The notes under the pieces were generated by a model, which did not search any database, was not told the origin of the DNA, and saw only the letters and a program-made list of their open reading frames with translations. Both the position numbers and the translations under genes were made by a program. A stretch of DNA of 63,674 nt, counting the filler, from Hausera hauseri (lineage: Eukaryota), in NCBI GenBank assembly GCA_046269625.1. It is 11 parts of 11 records of this genome, joined end to end, with 100 filler letters (N's around TTAATTAATTAA, not from the genome) between each part and the next. Parts side by side here need not be neighbours in the genome. Positions count along the whole stretch, not along the records: positions 1 to 9,647 come from JBJURY010322161.1; 10 more parts are not named here. The stretch is one strand, 5' to 3'. The number at the start of each line of letters is the position of its first letter. Positions within the stretch are counted from its first letter, which is position 1. This document shows, piece after piece, positions 1 through 40,784 of this stretch.

Positions 1-1
1 C

Positions 2-883
2 GCTCCCAACAAGTTAACAGGGACAAATCTTGCAAAAGGAATTACAGACGATAAATTTCAAGACACCTCGTCGAAAGATATATACAGGCCAAAGGAAATC
101 GAGGCCTTCAGACAATTCCTTGCCTTTCCACGACAACGAACACATGAGCTAAATCGAGCTATGGCGTCTGTAGTAGACGATACACGATATCAGGCTAAAT
201 GGGAATCATTACTTGGTGTGAACCACTATCAGAGAGTGACTACCGAAATACTCTACAAAATCTGGGGAAGATTTCTGGTTTTCGGACAAGCAGCATCCGG
301 ATTCTTAGCGATATATTTTTTGATACAAATGATTAAGGCAGTCATCCAAACAGTAATAAACGGATACGAAATATTTACACTGACCGGATTCTCATGTAAA
401 ATTCTGACCGCAATCATAACGCCCTTTGGAAAATTTTTAAAGGCATACGAAGAGAGTAGGTGGAAATCAGACGTAGAACGTCATGTCGGATGTCACAACC
501 GTAAACGAAGAAAAAAGCCTATATTCTTACGAAAGCAAAAATTTACAAAACCTATTACAAAAAGGAATGATTCAGATGACGACGAGCCTAAGGGAGGAGA
601 AGCATTTTCAGGGATGAATAGACACAAGGTGTACTCTGTAGTTAAAGCGCCATTACCCATGTTAACCCCTACCGCTCCATTCTACGAAGATTGTGACAAA
701 CGATCTATGAGCTCATACCAGACAGAAATTTATAAAAGGACAATTAATGTAGAAGACCCTTATGAAGGAACGAAACGATACGGGATTTTACGGAAAATGT
801 GTTACCGTCAATCCGCGGATGACCTTAAGATGATATATTCACCAAGCGAACCTAAGAATATTGAAACAAGATCGTCAGTTTGA
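2..883 (+). CDS. Env-like glycoprotein C-terminal part (chuvirus G / class III-like), 5'-truncated
   Basis: Frame is open from base 2. It reads DIYRPKEIEAFRQFLAFPRQR..LN, then WGRFLVFGQAASGFLAIYFLIQMIKAVIQTVINGYEIFTLTGFS (TM region), then a basic tail. This resembles the C-terminus of chuvirus-derived glycoproteins. Confidence 0.65.
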   Translation, partial: APNKLTGTNLAKGITDDKFQDTSSKDIYRPKEIEAFRQFLAFPRQRTHELNRAMASVVDDTRYQAKWESLLGVNHYQRVTTEILYKIWGRFLVFGQAASGFLAIYFLIQMIKAVIQTVINGYEIFTLTGFSCKILTAIITPFGKFLKAYEESRWKSDVERHVGCHNRKRRKKPIFLRKQKFTKPITKRNDSDDDEPKGGEAFSGMNRHKVYSVVKAPLPMLTPTAPFYEDCDKRSMSSYQTEIYKRTINVEDPYEGTKRYGILRKMCYRQSADDLKMIYSPSEPKNIETRSSV

Positions 884-961
884 GACAACCCAAGGCTAAA
901 AATCTTCCAACATACTGAACTACATACTAACAATCGGTAACCGCTAATTAGTACTCATGAA

Positions 962-1858
962 ATGGAAGAATTGCACGTGGAAAACAATGAATTATATCCA
1001 AACGTGGAGTTAAGGCAGTTGTCGGGAAACATAATATCCGCCCCAGAAGTAAGAATAAACGGACACAAAATATCAGTGACTAAACATTCGAAAGTGGCAT
1101 CAAACTGTTTTGGAACCGTGATCGAAGAAAGACCCTTTACCAAAATTATTATTGAAGACTGCAGAGTTTATGCGTTAATCGATACGGGTTCCGAGATGTC
1201 TTACATAAAAAATAATTCAATATCTCAAGCGCTAAGAGAACAATTATATCCGCCGTCTACGAAAGATCCAGGTAGTACATGAGCTTTTGGCCAAATGTCG
1301 AAACCAATATTTAAATGGAACCCACAAGTCTAATTGATTGGACCAACATTTCGGCACGAATTTGCAATCATGGAGCAATTACCTGATGATGTCGTTCTAG
1401 GATGCGATTTACTGAAAAGGCTACCAAATATAGCAGTCGACTTACAAACAGGAAAGCTAATTGAAATTAGACCAAACAACGGCGTGAAAAATGCTAAGAA
1501 TAGAAAATTCGGAGAAGTGTGGATACCAGTAGACGAGAACATCCCACCGAGAACAGAGATAACAATTTACGCACAGATTCAGCAAGATGACGATCAACCA
1601 GTATACTTTGAACCAAAGGAAACATTAAATCCAAATATAATACTCAGTAACGTACTTACGAGAGTACACTACGGTCGTGTGCCGATCAGAATAGCGAATA
1701 ATGCACCAACTCCTATCAAACTTTATGCTTATATCACTTTAGGGGGCACGTATAGAGTATCGTCGATAACTATTGAAGAGAAACCTTATAAATATGCTGA
1801 ATTTCCGTCTCACGTTGAAACCAAGTTTTCACCTGAGTCTTACTGTCGGTTCTATTAA
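962..1858 (+). pseudogene. Retropepsin aspartic protease plus spacer domain
   Basis: ALIDTGSEMSYI and VVLGCDLL motifs. Same frame throughout, with stops at 1280, 1331 and 1856. Confidence 0.85.
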
Positions 1859-3240
1859 CTATTATGTCGATATAAATCGATTATTGCTAAGGATGAAGAA
1901 GATATTGGTAGAGCGAAAGCATTAAAGTTGACTATTCCGCTCAAGAAAAAACCTGGTTCAAATGAAGAAATAGATCTAGAGGATCAGAAGATGCCGAAAT
2001 GGTACCCTCCACCGCATTCGCTAAGACCCGAGATAACAAAGGAAGTAGAACGAATGCTAAAAGCCGATATAATTAGGCCTAGTTATAGATCCTGGTGCTC
2101 GCCTATCCTTATGGTTAAAAAGAAAGGCACTACGAAACACCGATTTTGTATCGATTACAGAGCTCTAAATAATCTTATGATAAAAGATTCCTTCCCATTG
2201 CCTTCAGTAAAAGAGGCCTTAGACAGACTTTCAGGACCAAAATGGTTTACCACTCTGGACTTACAATCCGGATATTGGCAAGTGGAAATAGAGGACGAAG
2301 ACCGTTATAAGGCAGCATTTAAGACTCACGAAGGTGTTTACGAATTCAATGTTATGCCGTTCGGTATTACTACCGGGCCAGCCATATTTACAAGAACGAT
2401 GAACAAAATGTTAATGGGACTGGATCATGCCTTTGCATATTTAGATTATGTGATGATAGCATCAAGAAGGGAGGAAGAACACTTAAAGGATATTGAACAT
2501 ACGCTGATGCGTTTGGAACAGGTCGGATTGAAATTAAATCCAAAGAAATGCAAATGGGGTCAAAATGCAATATCCTACCTTGGCCATATAGTTGGAGAAG
2601 GAGGATCGAAACCAGATAAATCGCTGTTGAACAAAATATCAGACTGCATGGAACTACAAAATCAGCAAGAATTAAGGCACTGGTTAGGACTTTGTGGGTA
2701 TTATGCAACTTATGTGCCGGATAATTCGAAAATCAATGCACCTTTATATCGCTTACTTAAAAAAGGAATCAAGTGGAAATGGACAGACGTCGAACAGAAA
2801 GCCTTCGACGAAATGAAGAAGATATTGACGAGTGAACCTGTTTTGCAATACCCAGACTTTAACTTACCCTTCGTAATTAAGACCGACGCCAGTAAAGAAG
2901 GCATAGGGTATGAATTAGCACAAAAAAGAGAAGGTGAAGAATTAGAACATCCAATTGCCTACGGAGGACGTTCCTTTGAAGAAGGCCGAGAAAAATTATT
3001 ATGTTACCGAATTAGAAACTCTTGCTGTAAAAGAAGCACTTCGACATTTTAACGTTTATGTTTACGGGCAGAAAATCATAATTGTCACTGACCACAAGGC
3101 CGTTACGACTTTAAAGGGTCGAGCAAATAACCCAACATGCAGACTAAATAGATGGATTGAAGAAATCTCCAGATATAATATTGAATTTCAGTATAATCCA
3201 GGAAACAAACATGTAGACGCAGATGCACTATCAAGATTAA
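1859..3240 (+). pseudogene. Reverse transcriptase / RNase H
   Basis: Motifs RFCIDYRALN, LDLQSGYWQ, MPFG, YLDY (mutated YxDD), TDAS, ELETLAV and VTDH. Frameshift near 2975. Confidence 0.95.
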
Positions 3241-4724
3241 AGACTAAAACAAGCACCATTACCGTAATGAAGAAAAGTCAACTTGAGGAAATAATAGACC
3301 GCCAACGCACGTTAGCGATAGATAGGACAATCAAGATCTCAACAGAACAGAGAAAGGATAGAGTTATCCAGCAGATTATAGAATTTGCTAAAAAGGATAT
3401 TATACCAAAAGGACGACAATTAAAGAAACATTTACACAGACACGGACACAAGTACTGCGTCTTAAATGACGGAAATGAAAGAGACATTTTATTTTACGAA
3501 CGGAAAGGAAAGAAACTGATAGTTATTCCGAAGAGTTTACGAACCGAAGTATTGATGTCAGAACATGATTCATATTTGGCCGGACACATGTCCTGGAAGA
3601 AAACCTTAGAAAGAATAATGAATAAATACTTCTGGCCTAGCATCTATATTGATGTAAAAAATTGGGTAAATGCTTGTGAAGTGTGTGCAACCAAACAGAA
3701 AAAGACGAAAAACTACATGGCCGAGTTAAAACCAATTGACGTGCCCGATAGGCCCATGCAGGCCATGTCGATGGATATCGTAGGACCTCTTCCTACGACT
3801 CATAAGAACAATAAATATATCTTAACATGTATTGATCGCTTAACTCATTTTGTCGAATTGATCGCACTGATAGATCAAAAGGCCGAAACTTTGGCAGAAG
3901 CCGTTGTAAGGAGAATTATTTGTCGATATGGGCCTCCAGATCAGATACTCACGGATCGAGGAAGAAATTTTACCAGTGAATTATTTGAGAAAATCACTAA
4001 AATATTCGAAATCGAGAGATTAACCACTACTGCATATCATCCTCAATGTAATGGAATGGTCGAACGGATGAATGCTACCGTCATACGTATACTGTCGACA
4101 GTAGTGGCTAAGGACCAAAAAGATTGGGACGAATTTTTGGAAGGAACTCAATTTGCAATTAATACCACACCACATCCAGCGACAGGATTCACACCATTTT
4201 TCATGATGTATGGACGTGAAGCTGTGTTGCCCACGGACTTAGGAATGACGCCATACACAGTTAATCCCGAGGACTTAGAACAGAATTTTGCAGAAGTGTT
4301 ACAAACGCGATTGCAAAAGTGTTGGGAAATCGCTAAGGAACTATCCCGAGAATATCAAGAACAGTTCAAGAAGCAATATGATACGAGAGCAAAACCGCAT
4401 GATATAGAACAAGGAAATTGGGTTTATGTGCATTACCCAGCCGCTAAGAAAGGCACCTCACTAAAATTGACTCGTACGGGTAGAGGACCGTACGAAGTTA
4501 CAAAGGTTACTTCAACTACAGTGTATATCAACAGGAATGGAAAAGAAGAAGTTATGTCAGTACAAAGGGTTGTCAGTACAGAAATACGACCCAGAAAACA
4601 TTATAATCTACGCCAACGGGAGATAAAATCTTCGTCGATAGTTACTAGACCAATATTATATGTTCAGATAGTCTTAGCATTATCGTTGATTGCCTCCTAC
4701 CTCCCGAGAACACAAACCCAATAG
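3241..4724 (+). CDS. Integrase with a hydrophobic signal-peptide-like C-terminal extension
   Basis: HHCC zinc finger (H..GH..CEVC), catalytic motifs MDIVGP, TDRGRNF and NGMVER, and GPY. Ends YVQIVLALSLIASYLP. Confidence 0.93.
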
Positions 4725-6062
4725 TAGCACGATAAATCATTGTTAGGAGACATATACGGAATTCGGAAGAGTGGATCGAAATAGGAAACTACCAAGACGG
4801 AAGAAGCCAACAGCTGAAGAAATTCAAAAACAAGAAGATACGAAATTATTACAATTGATGACAATTTACTATTACATGCCAAACGCAGTATGCGTTGGAT
4901 TTAAAGCTTGGAAATCGCATCACGATTTCGGAAGATTTCAATTTTTCTTACTTGGCACAGTCACAAGAAGAACGAAAAATTGAGATTTCGAGCCTGGAGA
5001 AAATACGCAATGTTGCGATATAGATTTGGACACACTTATAATCTCACCTACCGTCTATACTTGCCAGACTCAACTGAAGTTTACGTTGAAGTAAAACCAC
5101 ATTCTCAATTAGTCGTTCCTGCATGGAACAGACATCATGGAGTAAAACTGAATGAAATATTACGGTCTACTGACCCAGATATAAGGATATTAGACGAAAA
5201 TATCCAGGGAATCTCTGTGGATAAGGAAAATCAATGCATTCAAGTAGACGCTAAAATAGGATTGGCTTTCAGCCAGGAAATTAATATCACATTTGAAGCC
5301 ACAGTCGGACCGACATCGAAAATAGAATATTGTTCTATTCAAGCAGGTGTGCAAAAACCATGCTGCAAAATACCCACAAACTAAGAATTCAAAATCAGAT
5401 TTGATTTATATGAAGTACGGCCAAATAAACCAAGTATACAATTAAGAACTTACTATCCAGAAAATAGAATTTGGAAAAATTCAGTGGAGATGACCACCAG
5501 AAGACCAGCTACTCAAATTAATGCTAATACGTCAACCATTACGTCGGCCACTGTGCCTAAAAAAGAATTAGGGAGTATCACTGTTAAATGTTCGGCATAT
5601 CGATCTAAGATTGTGTTCTTCGTGGAAGAGAAACAAAATTACGATATATACATAAGTTGTCGGACAACGTATAATAATCAAGTTGTGACGTTATTTAAAA
5701 GTACTTATCAAACAGAGTGCAACTTATTGAAACCACAAACCGAATATATAGTACAAATGCATGCGGAGAATAAACAGAACCAAACTATTACATTGAGTAC
5801 CTTAGGCGAAATTCGTGCCGAGTCGCATGTATATGAAGATATGGATGAGGAAATCACAGTTCTAGTTACCACACAAGTGCCAGTGAGATTAACTACACTA
5901 CCGATTATATCCATCTCTGTACTGTCTGTGTTCATTCTCATTATATTAATTGCAATTTTTAGGCTAGTTACCATAAACTGCTATTCTAAGCGTTCTAAAA
6001 ACTCAGAGTGGGAATTAAGGGAACTGAAAACCTCTGTTGACCCGTATGATAAAATAACCTGA
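4640..6062 (+). pseudogene. Putative type I membrane protein (Cys-rich domain, Thr-rich stalk, FN3-like domain, TM)
   Basis: ORFs 4908 and 5484 are in the integrase frame. Contains NQCI, EYC, CC, the FN3-like LKPQTEYIVQMHAEN, and TM ISISVLSVFILIILIAIF. Homolog at 23440-24736. Confidence 0.6.
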
Positions 6063-6129
6063 CAACTACAGAGCGGGTTATTTTATCATTTAACAAAGAA
6101 TTGGTTTAATTTTAAAACCATCCTTTGTC

Positions 6130-6163
6130 GTAAGATTAACCCTTACTGTTTATTTTTAGACAG
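6130..6163 (+). promoter_or_regulatory. Putative splice acceptor before the cargo ORF
   Basis: TTAAC...TTATTTTTAG directly before the ATG at 6164. Conserved in copy 2 (24848-24869). Confidence 0.5.
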
Positions 6164-8770
6164 ATGAGTAAAGAAAGAAATACGAAAACGAACACCGGAC
6201 AACCTAGGATCGACAGATCACAATCTACCCACAAGCCGGAACACTGTAGTACCGATGAATCGCCAAAACGCCGAATTAGTATCGACAAATTCTTGCAGAA
6301 TTATGCTACCGTCTTCCTCCCAAATTCTAAATCAATATATAGAGAAATACATAACGTATTACTTGAGAAAACCACCGTAAAGTATGATCGAACCTGTCAA
6401 ATTCCTAACAACCTAAAGGGTATAAGGGAAGAAAATAGGATTGTTTACCTCTACGCCATAAGAGAAGACAAAGATCTTCGAGGATACTTACTTAAACAGA
6501 TGATCACATACGCGAATAGACAGACTATTTATATCCATCTGACAGACAGTGAGATATATTATCGATTTAAAGACCAAGAATGGAACACAAACGAAGGAAG
6601 ACAATATAGATTCAGTACACTTAGCTTCCGTAGCCAAGATTTGCAACATTATGAGTTAAAATTCAGAGTAGCCGCCCTTCCCGTAAAAATAATGTTCGAG
6701 GTGACGCACGACGGTTACCAATATGTCAAATTACCACCCCTGAAGTTTTACCAACAACCGTCAGAAAAGGATTTGGACACATTCCTACAATCGTATAGAC
6801 TAGTGAAGGATGACAGAAATACCAGGATCATAGCAATTAATTGTGGAGAAGCAGACAATGCACAGAAAATCCCAATGGAAGTGTCAGTCCGAGAAACGAA
6901 CGGAACGGAGGTATATTGTACAGTCATCAGCCCAAGAAAACAAGTACGTGAGACGTATTATGATACGACAGGAATTCTCAAGGAAACACTCTCGAGAGGC
7001 AGAAACATGAAGCTTGTTCAATCCGAATTAGAACATTGTTTATATTGATATATTATAACAGGGTATCGCATTGATAACATTGTTGAACTATTAGAAATAC
7101 CCGTATCAAGCATCGCAGGAATGCGGGAAATAGGATCACACCCAGTAGTCGCCGAACAAAGTAAACGAATACTACGAGAAAGAAATTACCCCGCACCAAA
7201 AGTTATGGACTCCTATTTCAAATTAATGGTCGATGCCATGAACAGCGAACATGTTAAGATTAGCAAACTATTAACAGCAAGTCAGCGCACTCGCTACCTG
7301 CGCGACATATATGTAGCCTTAAAATGGGACCATGAGTAGACACCCAATAATCCAGAACAAAACCTACGAAGTATAACCGAACCGGAAAATATAAATAAAA
7401 GGTATGGGAAGCAGTATCGTTCATATTCCCCATGGAGAATTGTGGAACCGATGGGACGCGATAATATCAAAATAATTATTGAAAAACCAAGTCAACTGTG
7501 TACAGAAGTACCAAGTACCAGTTATAGTTCCTACGTCAAACCAATTCCAGAAATCAAATCCATAAGCAAAAAAATACAAACAGCCGAGATATTCAAAGTG
7601 CCCAAAATTCCACCGAAGAAGCAGAAAACTGAAACACAAATTTCTTCGATCAAAAGAAAATTATCCCTCTACGATTACTTGTTCAGAAAGAAAAATAAAG
7701 GAACAAACCCGAACCAAGTTTAAGAGAATCGACCCGATAAAACAAACAAAGAACCCGAAAGGTCAACAACGTCCGCCGACAACCAGGTAACAAGTCTAGA
7801 AAAACCCAGGAGATCGACATACAAACATAAGAACCCAGAAAGTGGATTTCAACAACTGTTTACGGAAGTTAACATTCTCAGAAAACGGAACTCCCAAGAA
7901 GATGTTCATTTTGCGACAACCAAAGATAATCCAAGGATATTAATAACAACTGAGTATTATAGTCGCCAGACGATCAAAGAAGCAACGTTTTTTGTAAAGA
8001 CCACGCCAGCTCGAGAAGTATATAAAAATACCTACATTTGGGAAAACCCTAAAATAGGGAAATACATCGTGCCAGTTTTCCTATCAAAGAGAAACGGCAA
8101 GCTAACAGTGCCAGTAGATAAACAAATGAAACCTTTGTTGAAAAGACAGTATCAAAAGTATAAAACGGATGGCGAAATTCCCGATTTAGATCGAGATACC
8201 ATTGCCAATTGGATATTAGTACCAGTAGGTTGTGACCCCAGGAAGAGTTCTGTAAATCCCAAACAAAAAAGAATCCATGGTTACCTATATTAGGATAAAG
8301 ATGGTCTCATATTCGAACCCATAGAGCTTGTAATAAAGGTAGATTTAGATGACGAGAGATGGGATAAAGAGGAAAACGAATGCCCATTATGTGAAGCAAA
8401 TCTCAGTCAAGGATACGTTATTTTGGATAACCGCGATTGTCGACATAAATATTGCAGAGATTGCTTGGAAAAATAGACCCTAGATAATGGCAAAACTACC
8501 TGTCCGGTGTGTAGAGCCGAGGAAACTGAACTTAAATATTTTTCAAACGGTAGTTATACCCGTGTAGTTCGCATAAGGCCCCATTACAGTTATGAATTAG
8601 AAACGAATACTAGAGAAGAAGATCAAACTAGTACCAGTTCTGGGCCCAGTTTAAGACAACGAATGGAATTACTACGAGACCCTCGTCGCCGCTGCACCTC
8701 TCCTGACGCAATGGGCACATCCGAGGATGCCGTTCAGGCTGAGAAATGTTGTAAAGACGTCTATAATTAA
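6164..8770 (+). pseudogene. Cargo ORF: DEDDh/REX4-ISG20-like exonuclease fold plus C-terminal C3HC4 RING
   Basis: ORFs 6164, 7121, 7442, 8069 and 8507 share one frame and are broken by single stops. Exonuclease-like part: RIIAINC..EVSV..NG..VISP..TTGI..VQSELEHCL..IITG. RING (8381-8512): CPLC..CRHKYCRDC..CPVC. Confidence 0.7.
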
Positions 8771-9562
8771 GAAGACGTCCAAGTTATAAATAGCGTTATA
8801 ATCAGAATATTGTAGATATTTATTATTTTACGATATTTGCTACTATTGTACGAAATTAGGAATTTGTACAAAATTAAAGAAGAAATTTAGCAATAAATTG
8901 ATATATTTTTAGAATTTTTGAAGAAAAGGTTGAATTTGTATTAATTTTTAAACCAGAAAATACCGAAAATTCAGTTAAAATTGATTATAATTCCAAGAAT
9001 AAATCAGTCACGTACACAGTCGTATTACTGTATAAACTAGCAGGTTTTAGAACAATGTGAGTTTTTGTGAAGCCACTGAGCTTTAAACCTGCGAAAAGTT
9101 GTCTTGATTAGATTGAAGCTATTGGAGACTATTGTACTTCCTTAGAGACGTGAAGCCGAAATACTATATTGCCGAAAAGAAGAGGATTCTAGAAGCTGCC
9201 AAGGAGCACAAATTCAGAAAACTAGTTGTTGATTTCGATTTGATACGTGGAGCATTGTGTAATTGTTTGGTATAAATATATTGTTTATTGTAAAATTCTT
9301 ATATAGTTTTTCATTGCCCCTTAAGGGTAATTTGACGACATTAAGGTCTTATAATTCACTGTAAATTATATAGGTAAGAGGAGAATTTATAATCATTTGC
9401 AAAGGATCGCAAGCAGTACACGCACTACTGATTAGTTAAATTGATTTAAGGTACATTCTGTCTACGCGATTACGGTAGACCTCACCTGTGTAAAATATTA
9501 CCTTCAAGTGTAACTATTGTTATATAGATGGAGTTGTATAAGGGCCACCCCAGTATATAACA
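8747..9562 (+). repeat. 3' LTR of copy 1 (~816 bp)
   Basis: TG...CA ends with an imperfect inverted repeat, preceded by a short purine tract. Shares motifs with the copy 2 LTR (GCAGTACACGCA, ACATTAAGG, AGGGCC). Unrelated RT sequence follows immediately. Confidence 0.75.
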
Positions 9563-9647
9563 AATAGCATCGTCGAATGTTCAACAACATTTGAACGATT
9601 TACAAGATTTATTCGACAGATGCAAAATAATGGGTTTAAAAATAAAT
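9563..9647 (+). pseudogene. RT fragment of another LTR element (insertion target)
   Basis: Translates IASSNVQQHLNDLQDLFDRCKIMGLKIN, the segment that follows YxDD in RT. Confidence 0.7.
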
Positions 9648-9747
9648 NNNNNNNNNNNNNNNNNNNNNNNNNNNNNNNNNNNNNNNNNNNNTTAATTAAT
9701 TAANNNNNNNNNNNNNNNNNNNNNNNNNNNNNNNNNNNNNNNNNNNN
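9648..9747. other. Artificial contig spacer (also 14289-14388, 22071-22170, 28149-28248, 34276-34375, 41527-41626, 45711-45810, 49809-49908, 55105-55204, 59276-59375)
   Basis: Identical 100-nt N runs with a central TTAATTAATTAA, which gives stops in all six frames. Confidence 0.97.
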
Positions 9748-10968
9748 ATTCAAACGGAAATCGGACATCGATAATTTGATGATTGAAGAACCCTTTGGGT
9801 GAAAGAATTAAATAAAGAGAAATATTCTGATCACGATTAGAGACTTAATCGTCAATATCGGATAATGGGGTATATGTTACATCTGCAACATCAAGAAATA
9901 GCACAGTTCTATTGCAGAATTTAATAAATTGTGACGCGTATTCTGCCATTTGCTGGGCAGTTGGTTTGGATGATTTGTCTGATATACGTAATCTTCCTTT
10001 TCCATCAATGCTGGCATTGTACCAAAATGACTACTTAAGGACGCATCAGTTTTTGATAACTGGTAAAATCGTCCTGAACACATTTCTAGTAATTGTTAAT
10101 AATAGAAAAGTTATTTTGAGCAAAAATCAGAAATTTTCGAGGCGGAAGATCTGGCCCGACTATGGTCTCAACGCGGCGGCAATGGACGTCCGGCCGCGTC
10201 CGACCAAACAGACCAAAGGGCACCGGCCGCCGTGGGCACCACATCACCCCCGTGGCAAAATGAAAACTATAAAGAACAAAATAGACGGAAAGAAAAATCG
10301 CCAAACGAAAAGTGTATGTATCAGTTGGTCTTAGTGTGAACAAGACGTTGGGTGTCTTCTGTAGTGCCTTGAATGTGGTTGCACTGGTTGGTGGATCGAT
10401 GAGGAGATCTTCCCCGCCAGGTGACTGTGCTTTCGTTCCAGTGCTGAAAGTGAAAGAATGGCTTTGAAATATACAAACAAATTCTCTGCATTTATCTCCT
10501 ACAATCTGAGTATTATCACTCACTCAGCAAAAAAATTCTCAATAGAACATTTTATACGGGTTAAAGAATCAGACTTCTCGCAAACGACGAAATCAGTGAA
10601 ATGACGTATGTCGTACAGCTCTTTTCAACCAAAATCGTTACGTCATTCCATACTCTTACAACTTTCCCTTCTAACAGGCAGAAGAATATAGGCAAGTTTG
10701 GATACATGGTGGATACAATTCGTGCAGCTCGTCTTAGGTTTTATTACATGATCGGACTATAAACAAATTCTGTAAATAAAATTGTAAAAACGGATTAATG
10801 ATTTTGAAATTTCAAGAGTTTAAAAAAATATAAAGAATTATTCTAATGTGGACTTCTTGATTTGGATTTAACTAATCTATTCATGGGTTCATCATCAAGG
10901 AAATCATCAAATATCTTTTTATCATCTTCGGAATTAAATCATGCATCTTTGATGTGGAAACTACATTC

Positions 10969-10983: not shown

Positions 10984-13900
10984 AATTTTTTCATTGATTT
11001 GCGCCCACCAGTGTGACCATTTTTTGCGCATATGCAGACCCTTCCTGGCTCAAACCATTTTTCATTTTAAAGGGTTTTTAAGCTTAACATCTTTGGATAT
11101 TCCTTTATCCCAATCATCACGTGCCACCGCTAGCCCGGCTATGCACTCGAACCGCTTTTTAACCCAAAAGGTAATCGCCCAAGCCCCCAGCTCATTTCAT
11201 CGCTCCCCTGGGATGACCTCATTACATTTATCTTTCCTGGTCTTTAGCTACAATCAACACATTAAAACCTTACAAGCTCCACTCAACGAGACAGCACAGT
11301 TCTTATATAATGCTTTATCCGCATCACATAACACTTCTGATTTTTATTTCACATATCAAAGGCTTATAATACATCCTTCAGACTCCTTTTTGTCTTTCGT
11401 ATTCCACGAGCTTTCAGACACCTGTCTCATGCTCCATTCTGGCCTACGGGTGGATCGGACTCCGATCCTTCATATGCGGAAAACCTCATTAAGACCAGAT
11501 CTGGTCGTCGTCCTGCCGACCCCACACTAATTACATCTCCAAATCTCTCTTGCACAGATTTATTTCTCGAAAAGACAAATTCGAGTCGTACCTGGTTACA
11601 ATTCCATTTGCAATGGCTTAAGGCCAATCATATCACAGATTCCTTCTTGTGGACGAACAGTTTGTTGCTACTACTTACAGTTAATATCAAGCAGCAAATC
11701 AATAATCTCGCCGACATACTAACCACTACAAATCCTATATGATATGCTTTATGAATCAGTTCTGCACATTACCGACCTATTATTGAAAGCATAATTCAGA
11801 AATACTTTAATGAACATGCCATCGAAAATCAAAAACCATCGGATTTCCTTAAAACTGCAATGTTTCAACTGAGTTCGTTAGGCATCACTCCTATAAACAA
11901 TGACAATCTTCTTCGTCAGTATTTTCTTTCATCCTTGCCGACCTCCATCAGAGCGCTGCTCACTGTAGTAAACGAGTCAACAGCCTTGAAAAGCTCGCCT
12001 TATTGGCAGACAAAAGCTTTGACATTTTGCAGTCTAATAGGTCGCAATTAGTAGCTGCAGCAACCGCTTACACACCTTCACACACAGATAGCACTTCATT
12101 TTCACAACAATTGCAAATGATGCAGCAACAGTTTGACGAGTTACAGTCGATTTTGGCCATTACTACCCAACTAAATAATCTTAATGGGCCTCGACAAAGT
12201 GAAACCAGGCCTTTAAGGAAGAGAAGCATTTCCAGACACTTTGCTCGATTCATGTCACCTGGCGGACGCATGGCTTGTTTCTATCACATGCGATTTCGAA
12301 GGGATACTAGGAAGTGCTTTTTGGGTTGTCGGTTCTATAGAGAACGGTACGCTGTGGACAACCCTATTTGTGTCTACCACAATAAGTTCCAGTCACAGGC
12401 TAGATCATGCGTGTCTGGTTGTAAACATTACAACGATAAATCTCCTCGCTTTTCTTCGTCTTCTTCCTTTTCTCCAAAACATTCAAAAACTAATAATGCC
12501 GCCAGATTTTACGGCACATTCTGGCGCAGGCAATATCGCTCAATCTTCTAGCCGTTTCAACACCGCCTCCGCAGTCTTTCTATTGAAAGCTGTACTGTTA
12601 TGCAGAGATACTTCACATATCAACTTCCTTATAGACCCAGGAGCTGCCTTTTCGCTCCTTCCCTTGTCCTTCGTTCTTACATCGACTATGATTTCCTGTC
12701 CACCGCTTTTCACTGCCAGTGGTCAACGGTTGCACGTTGCAGGAACCACGGAATTGACTTTTACATTCACCAACTTGCCAGATAAGTTTATCTGGAAGTT
12801 CCACGTGGCCAACATTAAATCTCCCATTATAGGCTCAGATTTTCTTGCGCCCCCATGATCTATTGGTCGATTGCAAATACAGCTGTCTTTTAAGCAGGAA
12901 CGCAATTGCAACTCCAAACATGTGGCTGGTAGAAAACTTAGCGAGCAATTCATTGCACTCATCTGTGAACATGTTGAACGCTTCGTCATCTATAAAAACG
13001 TCCGATAAAGTCGGTAATATTTCAATTAACAACAATCATAAATCTATTCTAAAACAAAAATCCAAATTAGCCGTCGACAGTCGCGATGCCAGTTGCTTTT
13101 CGTCAACCACTGGAGCTGTTCTCTCTAATGATATGCCTCATGCATTCTTATCTCTACACTCCGACCTTAAATCATATGTCACAACGTCTTTCTTTCGCAT
13201 AGTTAAAAGGGACGTCAACTTCTAGCCTCCATCCACAACTTATCATCACATAGTAACAGAGCATCAGAGGCCGATCAAACAAAAGGTCAGATCTTTGTCA
13301 CCACGCAGACGTAAAGCTGTTGAACAGGAATTTAATGAACTGGAAAGGTCTGGCATTATTCGGAGATCGAATTCACCGTGGGCCTCTCCTCTTCATATAG
13401 TGGTAAAGAAAGATTGTACCTATAGGCCATGTGGCGACTACCGACAATTAAACAATCTAAATATTACAGATACCTATCCACTACCACTCGTTAAAGATAG
13501 TCTTCATAGCCTCAACAACACCAATGCCTATTCTACCATTGATCTGAACAAGGCCTACCATCAAATTCCTGTTTCCCCTGATGACATTCCAAAAACTGCT
13601 GTCATCACACCATTTAACCTTTACGAATACATCTTCATGCAATTCGGCCTACGTAGTGCATTTCAGACCTTTCAGCGCCACGTTGACACCGTTCTTTCTT
13701 GACTAAATTTTGCTCACCCATACATAGATGACACATTAGTCGCTTCCAGCTCCAGCAAAAAACATCATGAGCACCTTAGAATCATTTTCCACAGATTACA
13801 TCAAAACAACCTGCAAATTAATTTCGCTAAATGTAATTTCTTCCAGAAACGCGTTAACTTCTTAGGCCACATAATTACTCCCGAAGGGCATTCGCCCCAG

Positions 13901-14288
13901 CCTGATCGCTTGCAACAATTAACAAATGTGACGTTGCCAACTATTACTACCGATATGATGAGTTTTCTAGGGTCATCGCATTTCGTACACAAATACGTGC
14001 CACAGTGCTCCGAACTAACGGCACCTTTCGCACATCTCTCATCTGGGAAGAAAAGATAATAAATCCATTGGACTCCCGATCTAGTAAACCAATTTGATCG
14101 CCTTTGTGAAGGTCTGAAAACTGTGGAAATCTTGGCCTTTCCAAAGCCAAAAGCTGAACTAATATTAACTACCGATGCCTAAACCACAGCAACTGGTGCG
14201 ATATTACACCAAATATACAATCGCGTCAATGAACCATTAGAATTCTAATCCCGAAAGCTCACTCAATCGGAAAGCCGATACTGAATAT
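10969..14288 (+). mobile_element. Degenerate Ty3/Gypsy element (gag-pro-RT-RNaseH start)
   Basis: gag: KPSDFL..YFLSSLPTSIRALL and two CxYHxxF..CxxGC motifs. Protease: FLIDPGA, IIGSDFL. RT: SPWASPL, RPCGDYRQLN, YIDD. RNase H start: TTDA. Many stops and frameshifts. Confidence 0.9.
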
Positions 14289-15358
14289 NNNNNNNNNNNN
14301 NNNNNNNNNNNNNNNNNNNNNNNNNNNNNNNNTTAATTAATTAANNNNNNNNNNNNNNNNNNNNNNNNNNNNNNNNNNNNNNNNNNNNGGGAGAAAACAA
14401 AACCTTGTAATGCAGACGAGACACATCCTGTGACAGATGAAATCTGATCCGTCCTTCTCTGAGGACGTCTTTGTCTCCCTGGACCCGTCTTGCAAAATGT
14501 GGATCCTGAGACTCTGACACCTCAACCCCTTCGTGGACCCGATACAGGACTGCCTCTGACAGAGTCTAACAAACTGCAGAGAATAAACAGGTCTGTCCAG
14601 GATCTGTCAGGTCTGCTAGTGAAGGTTCATTCCAGGGTGATGTTCTGGTTCTCCTCTGCCTGATAGGAGCTCTGGCTCACATTCACTACAAATGTTGCTG
14701 CTGGAGAGACGAATAGGGAAAGAGAGGATCAGAAACACTAAGAATTGGAACTCGTCTACAGAGACCAAAATACCACAAGAACTGAATATTTCTTTGGAGT
14801 GAAACTGAAGGTCCAAACTGCCCACAGATATGAGGGGAGGATGAGGAGCAGCAGCAGCTTCATCCTGGGAGAGGAGACACGACACATCAGGTCAAAGATC
14901 TGCTGGACTCTCACAGTTTTTATTGATTGTTTTGACGCAGCCTTCAACTCAAAATCCACATTTTCAAAACAGTTAACGCAGAGCCTGGAACAGTGCCACA
15001 GTGGTCAAAACACAACATTTTGTTTGCAAAAGGCACTAACTCTGGCAAAACATTTAAAATATGGAACAAAGGCAAATTTTGCCTTCAACCACTCAACTTT
15101 GACACAACTTTATGAGCACCTCCAATCAGTCATTACACACCGGGCAACAAAATACAAAACGTTGGTTACGTATTGTAACCCCAGATTCTATGAGTGTAAG
15201 CGTAGCCCTCTAAGGCTGTCGCTGATGGGTACCCCCCGCGCTCGCGCGCATTCTGAAGAACCAATAGTCTACGCCCACGTACCGTGTGGCCCCACCTACG
15301 GTCCCCTTAAAAAGGCAGACCGGACCGGAGGTCAGCTCCCTCAATTTTCTTCAGCTTC

Positions 15359-16795
15359 GTGACCAGTAGCTACGAAACCACAAGAAGGATGTCAACGAGG
15401 ATCTGCTCCGCCTGCGGCGTCGGCTTTATGCTGGCCAGCGACCTGCATGTGGTGTGCGAAGGCTGCCTCGGCGCCGACCACGCCAACCAGGCTTTGGCAG
15501 CGGACGCTGCCTGCCGGGCTTGCAGGAAGCTCTCTTTGGAAGAGAAGCAGCGGCGAGTGGAGTTCTTCGCGGGTCAAGACGAAGGCTTCGACCTTGGTGA
15601 CGTCGACGAAGACCTCTTCTGTTTCGAACCGGAATCGGATGATCCCGCTTCGGACAGAGAGGACGAGGAGAGTGGCGGTCCGGTCCCCCCCTCTCAGGCG
15701 GGAGCGCGGGATGCGGGCCCCCGAGCGGAGAACGAACCTAGGGAGCTAGGTCTTCCCCGTTCCACCACCACCTCCTTACCTTCCATCGGTGCGCTTGTCG
15801 GCGCCCTCCCGGACATCATCCAGCGGGCAGCGGACGCCAGAGGCCTGGCGGTCCCTGAAGTATTGGCTCCCCCACCGGACGAGCTGGCGGGCCAGTTCGC
15901 GTCTCCCCTTGCTGGTCGTCGGATGGCGGTCTGGCCGCAGTTCCCCGTGGTCCAGACCTACTTGGCCTCCGCCAACACCGACCCCACCAAACTCCGGGCT
16001 CCGGTGTCGACCTACGCGGACATAACAAAGGTGGAAGGGATGACCAACTCCGGTTTCCCGCCGGTTCCAGGATTGGAACCCGCGTTGTCCAGAGTGTTCG
16101 GCGTGGAAGCGGTCAGGTCCGCCGGACGGCGGCCTGTCCCTCAGAACCCGGCGGACCAACAACTTGTCAACTGGACGGACAGGTCCCACCAGTGTGCGGC
16201 GCAGTCGGCGGCCGCTACCAACAACATCGCTCTCCTGGCCTTCAGCATTTCTAAAAGAGCGGCGGAGAGCGACGCCCGGCAGGAGGAGAAGATGGAGCTC
16301 TGTGCGGCGGCGGACACCATTTTGAACCTGTGTGCTGCACAGGCAGTGTGTGCCTCCCGCATTATGGCATGGATGAATCTGGTCCAGAGGCAGATGTGGC
16401 TGCGCCAGGCTCCGTCCATCTCAACCGCCATCCAGAAGCAAATGTTGGAGGGCCCTATCACTCCTGACGGTCTCTTCGGCCCTCAGTACCAACAGCTCCT
16501 GGAACACATCAACACCTCGCAGACGGTGCAGGAACAGTTCCAGCAGTCGCGGTCCAGACCGGCTCATCGTCAGGCTCCGGCCGCTGGGAATTGGAAGGAT
16601 CGCCGTGGACACCGGCAGCAGAACCGGCGGGTTCATTCCTCTGCGCCTCGGCCTCCTTCAGCTCCGGCACCGGCGACGGTGACTGCGACTCAACCCCGCC
16701 CACAGCAGCAGCGAGCCCCCCGGCGTGCGTCCGGGCAGCTGGCGTGCACTTGGTCCAACCCCTCTCCTCCACCACAGAAGAGGCAGAGGAAATGA
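15359..16795 (+). CDS. DIRS ORF1 (gag-like)
   Basis: N-terminal CSACG..H..C..CLG..H..CRAC, plus GLFGP. Typical ORF1 position. Confidence 0.8.
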   Translation: MTSSYETTRRMSTRICSACGVGFMLASDLHVVCEGCLGADHANQALAADAACRACRKLSLEEKQRRVEFFAGQDEGFDLGDVDEDLFCFEPESDDPASDREDEESGGPVPPSQAGARDAGPRAENEPRELGLPRSTTTSLPSIGALVGALPDIIQRAADARGLAVPEVLAPPPDELAGQFASPLAGRRMAVWPQFPVVQTYLASANTDPTKLRAPVSTYADITKVEGMTNSGFPPVPGLEPALSRVFGVEAVRSAGRRPVPQNPADQQLVNWTDRSHQCAAQSAAATNNIALLAFSISKRAAESDARQEEKMELCAAADTILNLCAAQAVCASRIMAWMNLVQRQMWLRQAPSISTAIQKQMLEGPITPDGLFGPQYQQLLEHINTSQTVQEQFQQSRSRPAHRQAPAAGNWKDRRGHRQQNRRVHSSAPRPPSAPAPATVTATQPRPQQQRAPRRASGQLACTWSNPSPPPQKRQRK

Positions 16796-16810
16796 CTGGC
16801 GGGGGGGGAA

Positions 16811-22170: not shown

Positions 22171-23618
22171 TACAACAAATTATGAAGTTCGTTGATACTA
22201 ACAAAACGCCAAAGGGTCATCAGTTACGGAAACATCTACGACGATATGGTCACAAATACTACGTTGCTGGAGATTTGAACCACGGAAACGTGTTATAATA
22301 CGAACGAAAGGGACGAAAGTTGGTAGACATACCAAAAGGATTGAGTACAGAAGTACTAATGGCCGAGCACGATTCGTATTTAGCCGGACACATGTCGTGG
22401 AAAAAGACCATAGAAAGAATCTCGAATAAATACTATTGGCCGAGCATTTACATCGACGTGAAAAATTAGGTGAGTACTTGTGAAGTGTGTGCAACCAAAC
22501 AAAGAAAAGTGAAAAACTATATCGCCAAACTTAAACCTACCAACGTGACCGATAGACCAATGCAAGCAATGTCTGTGGATATTGTATGACCGTTACCTAC
22601 GACCCACAAAAGCAACAAATATATTTTGACCTGTGTAGACCGATTGACTCATTTCGTCGAGCTTATAGCGTTATTAGACCAAAAGGCCGAAACCTTAGCA
22701 GAAGCGGTAGTCCGGAAAATTATTTGCAGATATGGGCCACCCGAACAAATCTTGACAGACCGAGAAAGGGACTTTACGAGTGAATTGTTCGATAGAATTA
22801 CCAAAATTTTTGAGATTGAACGACTAACTACCACAGCTTATCATCCCAATGTAATGGAATGGTCGAGCGGATGAACGCGACCATTATACAAATCCTATCG
22901 ACAGTAGTCGCAAATGACCAGAATGATTGGGATGAGTTCTTAGAAGGGACACAATTCGCCATCAATACTACCACGCATCCTGGACAGGATTTACTCCGTT
23001 TTTCATAATGTATGGCAGAGAAGCTGTACTAACTACAGATTTAGGATTGATTCCTTACACAAAGAAAATGGAAGATTTGGAACAGAATTTTGTCGAGGTA
23101 TTACAAGTGAGATTACACAAATGTTGGAAAATAGCCAAGGAAGTATCTAAAAAACACCAAGAACAGTTTAAGAGGCAATACGACAAAAGGTTAAGCCACA
23201 CGACCTGGAACCAGGGAACTGGGTCTACGTGCACTATCCTGTAGCAAAGAAAGGCACATCTCTTAAACTCACCCGGACAGGCAGAGAACCTTACGAAGTT
23301 ACCAAAGTAACATCAACCACAGTTTATATAAATAAAAACGGCAAAGAAGAGGTCATATCGATTCAGCGAGTAGTCAAAACGAAAATAAAACCAAACAAAT
23401 GCTATATTTTGCGTTCGAACAAAACAAATGAAGAAAAGAAAACGTCGTCGATAGTAACCAGACTAATATCGTATGTACAAATAGTCCTCACCTTATCGTT
23501 AACCGCTTCATATATGCCCAAGGCAAAGTTGACAACTCAAAGAGAGAAATTGCAATATGCGGCGAAACGAAAAGATATCCAAAACTTACAGTCACTTAGA
23601 GTAAACGATATGGATTGA
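22171..23618 (+). pseudogene. Integrase (frameshifted)
   Basis: CVDRLTHFVELIALLDQKAETLAEAVV, MYGREA and YVQIVLTLSLTASY are nearly identical to copy 1. Confidence 0.92.
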
Positions 23619-24736
23619 AGCAAACCATGTGCGTGGATCGAAGCAAGTGAACCCGTTCAGAGCTACGTAAAATTTCAAATAATATTTGTAACTAGATATA
23701 TGATGAGAACATGTGATTTCCGTACGGATATCACAAAAGATGTTGGTATTTGTATTTTGGACAAGCCTACGGATACAGGTTTCAAATGTTTTATTCCAAT
23801 CAGTTTGGAGCTCAAGCTTATATAATTACAGAACTCGTAATAAGAACGCCCCAACGAAAGGACGCAAACCAAACCAAGACGGACGAAATAATCCGAAGCA
23901 CTGACCCGTTTAAAAGACTCTTAGATTATAATATTATGGGGATTTACAAGGACTTAAAGAATCAATGTATACGAATTGAGACCAGAATAGAGCTGCCTGG
24001 AGACAGACAAATATCTGTCCGATTTATACCACTGAATGCTTCGATCCCTACTCCAGAGTATTGTTATCTGGCCAAACGCCGATCTACTACGTGCTGTGTA
24101 ATACAACTAGGACAGGATTATCAGTTACAATTTGACTTGTACAATACGTACTCTGGAGAACAAAGCACTTATTTAAGAGGATACCGTCCGAAAATCGGAA
24201 GATGAAAGCTTTCCTTCTCAGCCACTACGAGAAGACCATCTACAGTTCCAAGCACAACTCTCACTACCACGATCGTCACTTCAGACGACATGCCAGAAAG
24301 CATACCAGTTAAGATTTTGTCAAAAAGCAATAGAATTCTATTTTACGCTGAAGAGACGTTTAATCGAGACGTCAAGATCGAATGTCCCACCCTGCACACC
24401 AACCAAGTTGTGATCCTGAGAAAGAATAGTCAGGAAACTAAATGCAAGTCATTACGGCCGCAACATGACTACATAGTCAGAATCACCGCAAAGGGTAAGA
24501 ATCCTAAAACTTATACAGTGCGGACTCTAGACAACCAGATCGAAGTAATGCAGTATAGAGATCTGAGTATGCAAAATGTTTTGACCACAAAGGGGTCCGT
24601 TGAGCCAAACAATTTACCGACGATCGCTATATTAAGTTTGTCAATTTTCGTTCTTGTCATATTAATGGCGATAATTTTTCTAGTTTCCAAAAATTGTAGT
24701 AAGCGCTGTAAAAATCGGAAGGGAGATAAAGGATAA
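23440..24736 (+). pseudogene. Type I membrane protein homolog of 4640-6062
   Basis: RSTDP, NQCI, EYC, CC, FDLY, a Thr-rich stalk, LRPQHDYIVRI, and TM IAILSLSIFVLVILMAIIFLV. Confidence 0.6.
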
Positions 24737-24879
24737 AAGGGCACCGAGACGGACCTTATAATAGCATAACCTGACAACTACAGATCGGGTTATCCTATCA
24801 TCAGACAGAGAAAATGTTTTGCTTTAAAACGATGATCTGTCTTAGGATTAACCTTTATTTTTATTTTAGCAAAGTAAGT

Positions 24880-27309
24880 ATGGCCGAGAAGGCGAAGAAT
24901 TCAGCAGTCAGTCCCAATTTCGATATCGATGATTTCCTACAGCAGCACGTCACTGTTCTCAAGCCACTGTCCAAAAGTCTATACCGACAAATTGGAGAAA
25001 ACATAAAAAACCGGAACTATTTAGAATTTGACCAAGAGAGTAAAATACCAAATGGACTAAAATGGGGCTTAGAAGAGAATCGACTGGTTTGATTATATGC
25101 CATGCGAAATCCAAAGAATGCACGGGCATACCTTTTAAGAGACCTGATTCCATATGAGCCGACACATCAGCAATTGCACGCACATGTCGCTGATGGAGAA
25201 ATTCAGTACAGGATCGTAGGACAGTCCTGGAGTACACAAAAGGGACAGAAATGAAAGTTTAGTACCTACGAGCTATGTTGCTATAGCCTCATGAATTACG
25301 CTCTAGAATTTCGGATCGCGGACCTTCCGACCAAAATCATGATCGAGATGACGTTGCGAACGGAGGTAATGAAGCCACTACCACCGTTACCATATATACA
25401 GAAGCCATCAGAAGATGAGATAGAACAAAATGGGGAATCCTACAGATTAGTTCCAGACGGTAGAAACACCCGGATATTAGCCGTAAACTATAGAGAAAAG
25501 GATGACGGATGGTATGTTCAGATTGAGGTCTTTATCAGAAATACTAATGGAGAAAAGATTATAAATAAAATAATCGCACCTCGAGCTAGGATAAAGGATA
25601 CTTTCCCCGACGTTACAGGAATTACGAAAGTACAGCTCGAAAAAGGAAAAGATTTCTTGGAGATCCAAGAAGACATAAGCCACTGTTTCTATGGATATAT
25701 TGTCACCGGATTCCGAGTGCACAAAGCGTTGGAGCGACTATGAATTAGGCAAGAGTACATAGCCGGAATACGAGAATTGAGCCGAAACCCAGCCGTTGTG
25801 AGCCAAGTAGAAAATACCTTGATGTGGAAAAGAGGCTGCCTGCTTCCGTCAGCATCGCGCGAATCCCAATTTAAGATGACAATAGAAGCCATGAATGGCG
25901 AACGATTCAAATTTCCTCAGCTGATGTCAGCTAATCAACGGACCAAATTTATAAAAGATATTTATGACTCGTTACGATGGGACCACGAGTGGAAAGCCAG
26001 AAACCACATGCAAAATGCAACATCCGACAACAACCCCAAAGTCCTGATACAAAAATTCCGAAAAGGGTTTAGTGAATACCCTGGTTATCGACAAATCGAA
26101 CCCCGAGAACATAACCGATTCCGAGTAACAGTTCCGAATAATCCAATAGAAGCCCCTAACAGCCGACAAAAACCGACGACCAGTCAAATTCAAAAATAAT
26201 CAATATCAGATAACCTGGACAATTCAAGAAAGCAGAAGACAAAAACTTCCTTCCTGGAATATATTAGTAAAAAAAGAAGCAAATCTAGTAAAAATCAAAC
26301 AGACGAGAATAAACGAACATCCGGCAGCCAAACCCCGAAGGAACCGATAAATGACCCAAAGGAAATATCATACCAACGAGAATCTAAAGAAAATAACGAA
26401 AGTTGATTAAGAATTACCAAAACAGGAACCTTTAAGACAGAAGTCAACGTTCTTTGGAAGAACTGGGAGGAAGATACCCCAATTATAGTTACAGAATTCG
26501 GCCAAGTGAAAGAATACAAAAGAATCCTCGTCATGGCCGAATATTATAGCAAGGGAAAAATCAAAGAGGCTATATTTTACGTATCTACCGTTCCTAGAAG
26601 AATAGTAAGCGGAAATGCATATGTCAGAGAAGATACCACTATTGGCAGATATCTAGCCGCAATATTCCAGTCGAAGAGCGGCACTAACAGATTGACGATT
26701 CCCGTGGATACCCAAGTTAGAATTCAATTAAAAAGACAATACAAGAAGACTGGAGTACTCGATTTGGATAAACAAGAAATAGTCGAATGGACCCTAGTCG
26801 CGGTATCCGACGATCCGAGAAAAAGCTCAATAGACCTCAATCAAAAGAGATTGTACGAATACTTGTACCAAGACAAAAAAGGACTGGTATTTGAGAGAAT
26901 AGAAGTGGACAAAAACTTTGTGGACATTAATGCATCTGAAAAAGAAAAATGTCCCGTTTGCGATGCGGATCTCTATCAAGGATTCGTAGTATTGGACAAC
27001 AAAAATTGCAGTCACAAATATTGTCGGTACTGCTTAAAAACGTGGACACTGAAAAATGGGAAAACGACCTGCCCAATATGCAGAGCCGAAGCTACCAGGC
27101 TAAGATACTACTCAAATAGAGAAAATAAGAAGATAGTAGAGATACTACCCGAACAGGCCACTACGTCCTATCCTTTTGACTTACAATCGCCGTCGAACGA
27201 ATCGGATTCAGAAGTGGACTTACGCGGACGAATGGACCGATTGCGCGGCACCTCTACTGACGCACTGGGCACATCCGAGAGTGCCGTTCAGAGAGGAGAA
27301 ATGTTATGA
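24880..27309 (+). pseudogene. Exonuclease-fold plus C3HC4 RING cargo ORF, copy 2
   Basis: ORFs 24814, 25291, 25777 and 26506 share one frame. Exonuclease-like part: RILAVNY..IIAP..VTGI..IQEDISHCFYGYIVTG. RING (26950-27081): CPVC..CSHKYCRYC..CPIC. Confidence 0.72.
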
Positions 27310-28086
27310 GATGGCAGTAAAACAGAATTATACATATGTAAATAATAGCGAAACTGAAAAACGAAACCGAAAGTGAAACCGAAACTAACTAAAAATGAAA
27401 AATTAATATTATTTAGAATTAACCAGTGAATCTGTAAATATGAAAATAGTTTATTGGAACGCAAAATTATTTATTATTCTTGAAATACGGAAAGAATTAA
27501 ATGAAAATAGCAGAAAATTATTTGTAAATAATAATGGGAAAATAATTGCTTATGACTGCCAATTATATAAGGCAGTACAAAATCAGTTACCCGAACATTA
27601 GTGAAGTTGTAAGTTGGCATTGATCGAGCTGTTGGAAAAGCTCAGAGATTTAATTACTTTTCGAATTATTGAAACGATATTGCAGTTGCCGAGCTAGCAG
27701 AAGCTCCGAGATATCCGACATTTGTGAAGAAGATCTCAGTTAACATTGAACTTGAACGATTGTAGAAACCTTCTTGACGACTGTATCGTCTGGTATATAT
27801 TTGTTTATTGTCAATAAATTTGTATTCTAAAATATTCTTATAGTTTTCTGTCGCTCCTTACTAGGACCTTGTACCACATTAAGGATTAAAATCACATTAA
27901 ACTTCATAATTAAGTTGAGAATTTGTAAACTATGCAAGGCACCGCTCGCAGTACACGCATTTTAAAATAGTGCAAACATTCTAACGAGAACGTTAGGACT
28001 TATCTGCTTATAATCACTGTTTTAAACTTAAGTTTCAATATTGTTATAGTTGGGTGTTGGATAGGGCCCACCTTAAACTACTAACA
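27302..28086 (+). repeat. 3' LTR of copy 2 (~785 bp)
   Basis: Preceded by the PPT AGAGAGGAGAAA. Ends TGTTA...TAACA. Contains TATA-like and AATAAA motifs, and motifs shared with the copy 1 LTR. Confidence 0.75.
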
Positions 28087-40217: not shown

Positions 40218-40784
40218 TCACAATAAGTCATGAGTGGTTCAGTAAAACATCACAGGGACAATCAGGTACGGAAAGTTAACGTCCAGCATGAAACCATACA
40301 AACTGTTGTATGAAAACATTTCCATTTTTATTATTATTATTTTCTACTTTCAACCTTTAACCCTAATGTAAATAAAACAGCTGATAATATTATACTGGTC
40401 AGTGTAAACCAAACATTTGCTGTGAACTTTGAGCTGATCCACATTTCAAGCTCTGCTTCAATGGGAGTAAATGAGAGTTTTGGTGCTGCACGCTCGTGGG
40501 ATTTAGGAGAAAACCATAAGTCCTAGAGCCGCGACAGACGGGAAAATGTCGACTTTGTCATGTACATTTCTTAAGTAGGTGCAAAGATTGTGAGAGTAAA
40601 AATAGTTTGTTTGCAAACATGATGGAAATTTAGACAATAAAACAACATTTCTGTGGTAAAAGATAAAAAAAACAACTAAAAATAATATTTTCTGTCTGAA
40701 TGCAGCATGAATGCTGAAATTTGCAGCTGAGCTGTTAGGGGACATTAGCTAAAAGGATCAAACTACTGGCAGGAGCTAAAGTAG

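Follow-up and report, generated by a model that had tools for sequence, protein, structure and literature searches.

Predicted oxygenase-like and degenerate DEDDh folds fused to a RING in a probable 3' accessory gene of an envelope-carrying Ty3/gypsy element from Hausera hauseri

Some Cer elements of C. elegans carry an exonuclease ORF, and the viral RING E3 ligases ICP0 and poxvirus p28 join a RING to a targeting domain. Ty3/gypsy errantiviruses with a gB-type env placed before pol (GAG-ENV-POL) have been described in Nematoda, Bryozoa and Platyhelminthes (PMC13524379), and in the giant planarian gypsy element Burro/GYPSM1 the env lies in frame between gag and pol (PMC6431247). In rotifers, the gypsy-like Juno/Vesta LTR elements and Terminons carry a DEDD exonuclease as an extra 3' ORF (PMC5408684). 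Phalaenopsis gypsy elements have a 2OG-oxygenase (2-ODD) accessory ORF, which was read as a defence against RNA-level surveillance (PMC9289625). In C. elegans, Cer1 produces CERV, a spliced accessory protein whose pseudo-GTPase domain is needed for genomic RNA export (PMC10309623). On the host side, human PML-I is a RING protein with a DEDDh-like C-terminus that promotes proteasomal loss of L1 ORF1p (PMC10123124). 

We looked at an accessory gene in a 63,674-nucleotide stretch of H. hauseri DNA (the window), which consists of 11 pieces joined by N-linkers. The gene lies on piece 1 (1-9647), and a second copy (copy 2) lies on piece 4 (22171-28148). Like the HSV gB-type errantiviruses, the element on piece 1 has a gB-like env ahead of PR-RT-RH-INT, but gag is not on this piece; moreover, the accessible text on errantiviruses makes no mention of an accessory gene on the 3' side: the words RING and nuclease do not occur in its main text, nor exonuclease, AlkB, RING or DEDD in seven supplements (PMC13524379). 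Burro resembles our elements by its in-frame env, its ubiquitin- and apoptosis-related extras and its ankyrin repeats, which are also found in a relative described below (L016). However, its extras (AIR1-type zinc finger, MATH, BIR, BCL2, SUMO-like, dUTPase) lie mostly within the polyprotein, and neither an exonuclease, an oxygenase nor a separate 3' RING gene is listed in the accessible text (PMC6431247). ORF3 of Juno/Vesta shares a D-to-E motif change with relatives of our gene, but it is described as an RNase D-like DEDDy protein with intact catalysis and without an oxygenase-like domain or RING (PMC5408684), whereas the fold found here is a degenerate DEDDh of the ISG20/REX4 type. Similarly, the Phalaenopsis AlkB is a recent capture and an active m6A demethylase in a plant host (PMC9289625), whereas our N-terminal domain resembles it at the fold level only, has an unconserved triad and is fused to a DEDDh fold. 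CERV is likewise a pseudoenzyme-bearing gypsy accessory protein, made from a spliced mRNA where our gene has an acceptor-like site, but it consists of H, M and pseudo-GTPase domains, shares exons with gag and, as far as it is described, lacks a RING E3 (PMC10309623). Finally, PML is a host-side precedent for coupling a RING to a DEDDh domain, but it is a host TRIM with an N-terminal RING that restricts retroelements (PMC10123124), whereas our RING stands at the C-terminus of a protein that the element itself encodes. We found no report of the oxygenase-like and DEDDh family or of its RING fusion in a literature search that stopped short of subscription papers, Repbase and bioRxiv supplements. 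The ingredients are already in print apart, as rotifer DEDDy ORF3, orchid AlkB, ubiquitin-related domains of Burro, CERV and PML.

The features are collected in Table 1. They indicate with high confidence (a probability of about 0.9) that the accessory gene lies on the 3' side of an endogenous Ty3/gypsy retroelement whose envelope gene precedes pol, that it encoded one five-part protein of about 870 aa in the active element, and that both copies in the window are now dead. The Pfam domain order PR-RT-RH-INT is that of Ty3/gypsy elements, an assignment made on a piece without gag that begins within env. A gB-type env stands upstream of pol in the window and is present as a full domain in a longer relative (L015, E 8e-95); the protease behind env shares its frame. 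An arrangement of this kind suggests, short of proof, a host from the groups named above, and thus probably an invertebrate. The integrase ORF is closed by a hydrophobic signal-like stretch. Behind it, the predicted membrane protein, which is additional to env, has a beta-rich ectodomain and a single hydrophobic helix near 5900-5975. No Pfam match was obtained for this ORF or for its counterpart in copy 2 (23600-24790), and BLAST of the polyprotein tails of L015 and L016, which also end in a hydrophobic helix, gave no match to it. A non-coding stretch at the membrane-protein stop (6055-6095 / 24767-24807) is strongly conserved, with 19 identical bases running. The conserved block downstream of the accessory gene is probably part of a 3' LTR, and the 5' LTR is absent from piece 1. 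Pol, too, is broken, by stops and a frameshift. At 85% identity or more, 24,905 contigs of run X1 and 1,709 of run X2 match piece 1; in each run they cover 30 of 30 bins of the piece, and the differences are chiefly transitions. The element is a decayed multicopy family. An earlier note had called the gene retroelement cargo, and this holds, as pol lies directly upstream in the window and in both long relative loci.

Table 1. Coordinates of the element and of its accessory gene in the window.
Feature	Position	Strand	Basis or remark
env, C-terminal part, gB-like Monjiviricetes fusion glycoprotein	2..883	+	Pfam PF24664, E 4.5e-21 at 2-880
Aspartic protease region, interrupted by stops	884..1858	+	Pfam RVP, E 5.8e-5
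Reverse transcriptase and start of RNase H	1859..3052	+	RVT_1, E 1.1e-35; RT_RNaseH_2, E 4.9e-20
Remainder of RNase H and integrase, past a frameshift	2946..4724	+	Integrase_H2C2, E 2.6e-19; rve, E 1e-15
Membrane-protein ORF, predicted type-I, broken, start uncertain	4905..6062	+	sequence
Acceptor-like site: branch-like GATTAAC, pyrimidine run, AG at 6158-6159, directly before ATG	6134..6163	+	
Accessory gene, 868 codons, stops at 7046, 7337, 7721, 8291, 8474	6164..8770	+	stop-free homolog P0003, E 1.2e-235
Double-stranded beta-helix, 2OG-Fe(II) oxygenase type (AlkB/prolyl-hydroxylase-like), residues 40-186	6281..6721	+	fold comparison
ISG20/REX4-type DEDDh fold, residues 219-391; catalytic columns A224, N226, I306, L370, R375	6818..7336	+	fold and alignment
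Basic linker, poorly conserved, predicted disordered, NLS-like K/R runs, residues 392-565	7337..7858	+	pLDDT <50
Conserved C-domain, residues 566-735	7859..8368	+	47-53% identity among three sequences
C3HC4 RING, spacing 2-15-1-2-2-12-2, cut by stop 8474 in copy 1	8381..8515	+	
61-nt block	8690..8750 / 27244-27305	+	87% identity between copies, above surrounding codons
Conserved non-coding block	9260..9424	+	copy comparison, 71% identity to copy 2 (27798-27959)
Copy 2, other contig of the window: integrase, broken membrane-protein ORF, same acceptor-like site	22173..24868	+	
Copy 2 accessory gene, stops at 25090, 25252, 25741, 26197, 26404, RING uninterrupted	24880..27309	+	

The pieces of the window are mixed in look, with a GC content of 28-60%, and therefore tell little about the host. 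A GC-rich stretch (15311-20338), whose frames resembling gag, RT and a tyrosine recombinase are almost unbroken, looks DIRS-like and stands between 68-nt direct repeats at 15147 and 20632. Fragments of a second LTR element with gag and protease lie at 11904-14059, and broken frames resembling protein-primed DNA polymerases of the Maverick/Polinton type lie at 29157-32136 (-) and 56028-58904 (+). The window also contains a second RING ORF with a Pro/Ser-rich N-terminus (42092-42958) near a 128-nt tandem array (40740-41507), an intron-free 1369-aa Ltn1/listerin frame (49909-54018; Pfam LTN1 HEAT, UBC-like, RING) and long Gly-X-Y collagen repeats (59376-63674, -); these repeats and the polymerase fragments may be the reason that pieces of the host were binned together.

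The earlier note had joined five ORFs into one frame of about 870 codons, with several stops that face sense codons in the other copy. Both points were borne out: P0003 is a stop-free homolog of 870 aa, and all ten breaks of the two window copies face sense codons in both of the other sequences. P0003 is a singleton on a 16-kb contig, and it has the same domain order, RING included, meaning that the fusion is no artefact of reading through stops; a reading as two genes, one for the exonuclease and one for the RING, is thereby rejected. In the active element, the order was a 2OG-oxygenase-like fold, a DEDDh fold, a disordered basic linker, a conserved domain and a C3HC4 RING. The two window copies are 39% identical over 846 columns. 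A protein search among 1.84 billion representatives gave 84 matches at E <=0.001, namely P0003, a 333-aa fragment (P0004), 22 matches that cover the N-terminal half and 60 in the RING region. Word-index protein searches retained none of 4439 candidates with the alignment of both copies as query, P0003 alone among 368 for the C-terminal region, and none of 96 shorter proteins. The ESM Atlas gave no usable match to P0003 residues 50-230, and its matches to residues 570-810 were confined to RING clusters (under 0.9). Of the IMG/VR scans, three were blank and one gave a RING-only locus, and a JGI scan with P0003 was blank. Pfam and PDB sequence searches with the window copies saw the RING alone, with a PolC exonuclease at E about 1. 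In PHROGs, P0003 matched an exonuclease weakly (E 1.1e-4), and a DnaC-like match of the C-terminal piece (E 0.003) was dismissed as chance.

The REX4/ISG20-type DEDDh fold proposed in the earlier note was recovered, residues 219-391 being modelled as DnaQ-like. By Foldseek and Z-scored comparison, the nearest folds to the two N-terminal domains (the head) are nucleic-acid enzymes: ISG20, ISG20L2, SDN1, DnaQ and AlkB homologs. None of the catalytic D, E, D, H and D residues is kept in P0001, P0002 or P0003; the five columns read A-N-I-L-R and A-N-A-M-R in the window copies and A-N-M-L-C in P0003. Hence, this is a member of the fold but not of the active-site group, and the nuclease motif is gone in all three full-length RING-bearing copies. 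That the other acidic and His residues are missing was correctly seen (I/L/R, A/M/R and M/L/C in the remaining columns), but the claim that the first catalytic Asp is Asn has to be corrected, since the Asn sits on the Glu column, as it also does in 4/4 sequences with a profile built without the clade, and the Asp column holds Ala. E229 is invariant among the four closest sequences. Both head domains are about neutral in charge (K+R 22 vs D+E 18; 24 vs 22), and a nucleic-acid surface is thus not evident from composition.

The note had considered a single dead fold. Its DEDDh part stands but its singleness does not, as two pseudoenzyme-like folds are present. The N-domain is predicted to be a double-stranded beta-helix with the flanking elements of 2OG oxygenases. 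AlkB-type and prolyl-hydroxylase-type fold matches were tied within 1 Z, cupins were also in the Foldseek list, and no match to oxygenases was found at the sequence level, the domain being detectable by fold only. As the oxygenase match is moderate and the subfamilies are tied, an RNA-binding origin is not established. The iron triad of 2OG-Fe(II) dioxygenases is His-x-Asp/Glu...His. In 28 aligned rows of the N-domain, we saw one His column (89%), and HxD/E in 7 rows with no shared column; the triad is therefore missing family-wide, even beside an intact nuclease motif. The conserved polar columns in these rows are R92 (93%), H125 (89%) and D/E179 (93%), which could form some other site.

Downstream of the head, the linker is 20-32% identical between sequences and rich in basic residues (K+R 34, D+E 18). 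Models of the C-domain are low in confidence (folded with 3 sequences, pLDDT <50 at residues 1-175) and the domain is missing from fold match lists, an absence that should not be taken to mean that its fold is new. In contrast to the linker, the RING is the best-conserved part (60-66% identity). The earlier claim of intact ligands was confirmed, with all eight in cross-brace spacing in 3/3 full-length sequences, and a dead DEDDh fold joined to a RING thus stands on the fused P0003, the fold and the 0/5 catalytic positions. The three points on which the note had said that it could fail came out as a DEDD fold, one fused ORF and no full tetrad. An Arg after the last RING Cys is known as the 'linchpin', and it is present in 3/3 sequences. 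Near the 3' end, codons are otherwise saturated between the copies, and P0003 ends with a peptide similar to that of the 61-nt block, which may act in cis or may encode a C-terminal peptide that is itself conserved; a hairpin there was unsupported (fold z 0.79 and -0.39).

Since synonymous sites are saturated between the copies (pS 0.72-0.87), only pN/pS could be stated. It is 0.51 for the N-domain, 0.49 for the DEDD domain, 0.70 for the linker, 0.37 for the C-domain, 0.24 for the RING and 0.15 for the integrase core, indicating that the folds were maintained after loss of the motif. The accessory gene diverges about three times faster than the integrase (pN 0.39 vs 0.12). The branch-like motif, pyrimidine run and AG before the ATG are conserved in copy 2. 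In 8/13 cargo ORFs, an acceptor-like site is found no more than 25 nt from the start, vs 70/1508 other ATGs (4.6%), a contrast that is suggestive only, because the rule was set after the sequences had been seen, one start is 3 nt off and near-copies are not independent. The pattern suggests that the accessory gene may be expressed from a spliced mRNA.

From the 121 pattern matches of a metagenome scan, 16 loci were obtained, 15 of them from two assemblies and several being near-copies. Only two loci exceed 6 kb, and both have RT and integrase upstream, 36-41% identical to those of the window; apart from L007 (below), the others are too short to show the upstream context. L015 (1-9645) has an open 3215-aa one-frame polyprotein with a gB-like env, two protease-like stretches, RT, integrase and a membrane-protein tail, directly followed by an oxygenase-like and DEDDh ORF. 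In L016, pol is extended by a second aspartic protease, ankyrin repeats and a Fn3-like part, and two tandem accessory paralogs follow (6861-8246 and 8592-9920), of which one has kept the DEDDh motif intact while in the other it is degenerate. L007 (3-1679) has an aspartic protease resembling the second one of L016 (E 3e-11), then a membrane-protein tail, directly before the accessory ORF, and may be the end of a similar polyprotein. The alignment comprised 34 rows, made up of 23 proteins together with 11 ORFs that come from 10/16 loci; P0005, P0039, P0066, P0087, L003, L005, L007, L008, L013 and L014 were omitted, most of them because they were duplicates or fragments. Of the 34 rows, 20 keep the complete DEDDh motif (D, E, D or E, H, D), three of them being plain REX4-like proteins, and the motif is degenerate in 14, two being fragments. 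The RING pattern occurs in three rows, the only full-length sequences known of this form. In a tree of 33 rows (L006, identical to P0031, was omitted), the four closest sequences group together with 100/100 support, nested within the family. Loss of the nuclease motif takes 1-3 changes, a single change being allowed by 24% of bootstrap trees, with long branches. These results support a history in which the elements have long carried the oxygenase-like and DEDDh core as an accessory module; in the window lineage the nuclease motif disappeared, and the gene there has the C-terminal domain and RING as well.

What the protein did is less certain. That it was an antagonist of host silencing or restriction, as the earlier note supposed, is no more than plausible. 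The reading that we favour, at somewhat less than even odds, is an RNA-bound adaptor aiming ubiquitination at host surveillance factors. The gene would be translated from a spliced subgenomic mRNA, and its two enzyme-like folds would form a nucleic-acid-binding head that sits on element RNA or RNA ends without cutting. The RING would recruit a host E2 and ubiquitinate the surveillance proteins (silencing, decay or restriction factors) arriving at the same RNP, so that element transcripts would be protected. The conserved C-domain beside the RING could instead be the substrate adaptor. Since the core occurs family-wide without the RING and often has an intact motif (20/34), its own job needs no ubiquitination. 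Handling of the element's own RNA fits this RING-less core and the acceptor-like site equally well. Such a Rev- or CERV-like regulator would bind unspliced genomic RNA and license its export or packaging, its RING remodelling or recycling the RNP or setting the protein's own level rather than attacking defence. The acceptor-like site adjoining the ATG in the cargo ORFs implies an export problem for unspliced RNA, neither the RING nor the nuclease motif is constant among proteins that have the core, the linker has NLS-like runs, and Cer1 CERV is a described precedent (PMC10309623). However, we saw no link to CERV in sequence or fold, a canonical RING is more than an export factor needs, and divergence faster than that of integrase is frequent in conflict genes, although CERV is also divergent. 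We regard this regulator as a serious alternative, though rather unlikely in itself, and it may overlap with the RNA-bound adaptor.

A slightly less probable but likewise serious proposal is that the folds are protein mimics, binding host proteins rather than nucleic acid, for example partners of REX4/ISG20-type nucleases or of 2OG-oxygenases, which the RING then degrades. The neutral charge of the domains agrees with it, as does a Foldseek match (E 1.5e-3) to the N-terminal domain of vaccinia C16, described as a prolyl-hydroxylase mimic binding PHD2 (bioRxiv 10.1101/2024.10.06.616852). But the C16 match is weak and reflects a common fold, and in relatives the N-domain is joined to a nuclease whose motif is intact, a sign of work on nucleic acids. 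Improbable, though suggested by the R92, H125 and D/E179 columns and the invariant E229, is an unusual catalytic or ligand site in the head, which would make 'pseudo' wrong for at least one domain; there is a single His column, HxD/E is unconserved and no DEDDh position is kept. A neutral passenger, or a PML-like restriction gene serving the host, is suggested by the broken window copies and by a domain content resembling host restriction factors. This explanation is largely refuted and very improbable, since purifying selection between copies (at saturated synonymous sites), a fixed position behind pol in distant elements and decay along with pol indicate that the gene is kept by the element and dies with it.

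Going further than the RNA-bound adaptor, one could tentatively see here, in one lineage of a widespread, undescribed family of invertebrate env-before-pol gypsy accessory genes that join a triad-less 2OG-oxygenase fold to an ISG20-like nuclease, a double-pseudoenzyme RNA-guided ubiquitin ligase. Doubtful as this is, such a ligase would be the retroelement mirror image of PML, removing silencing factors or factors that read RNA modifications from element RNA. Counter-defence proteins of animal LTR retroelements are little known. Here, one genomic slot offers a series (intact nuclease, dead nuclease, dead nuclease with RING, and the dead/intact pair of L016) which makes the change from enzyme to adaptor testable, and, thanks to P0003, whose RING-bearing sequence is naturally free of stops, the proposed E3 activity and RNA binding are open to direct assay.
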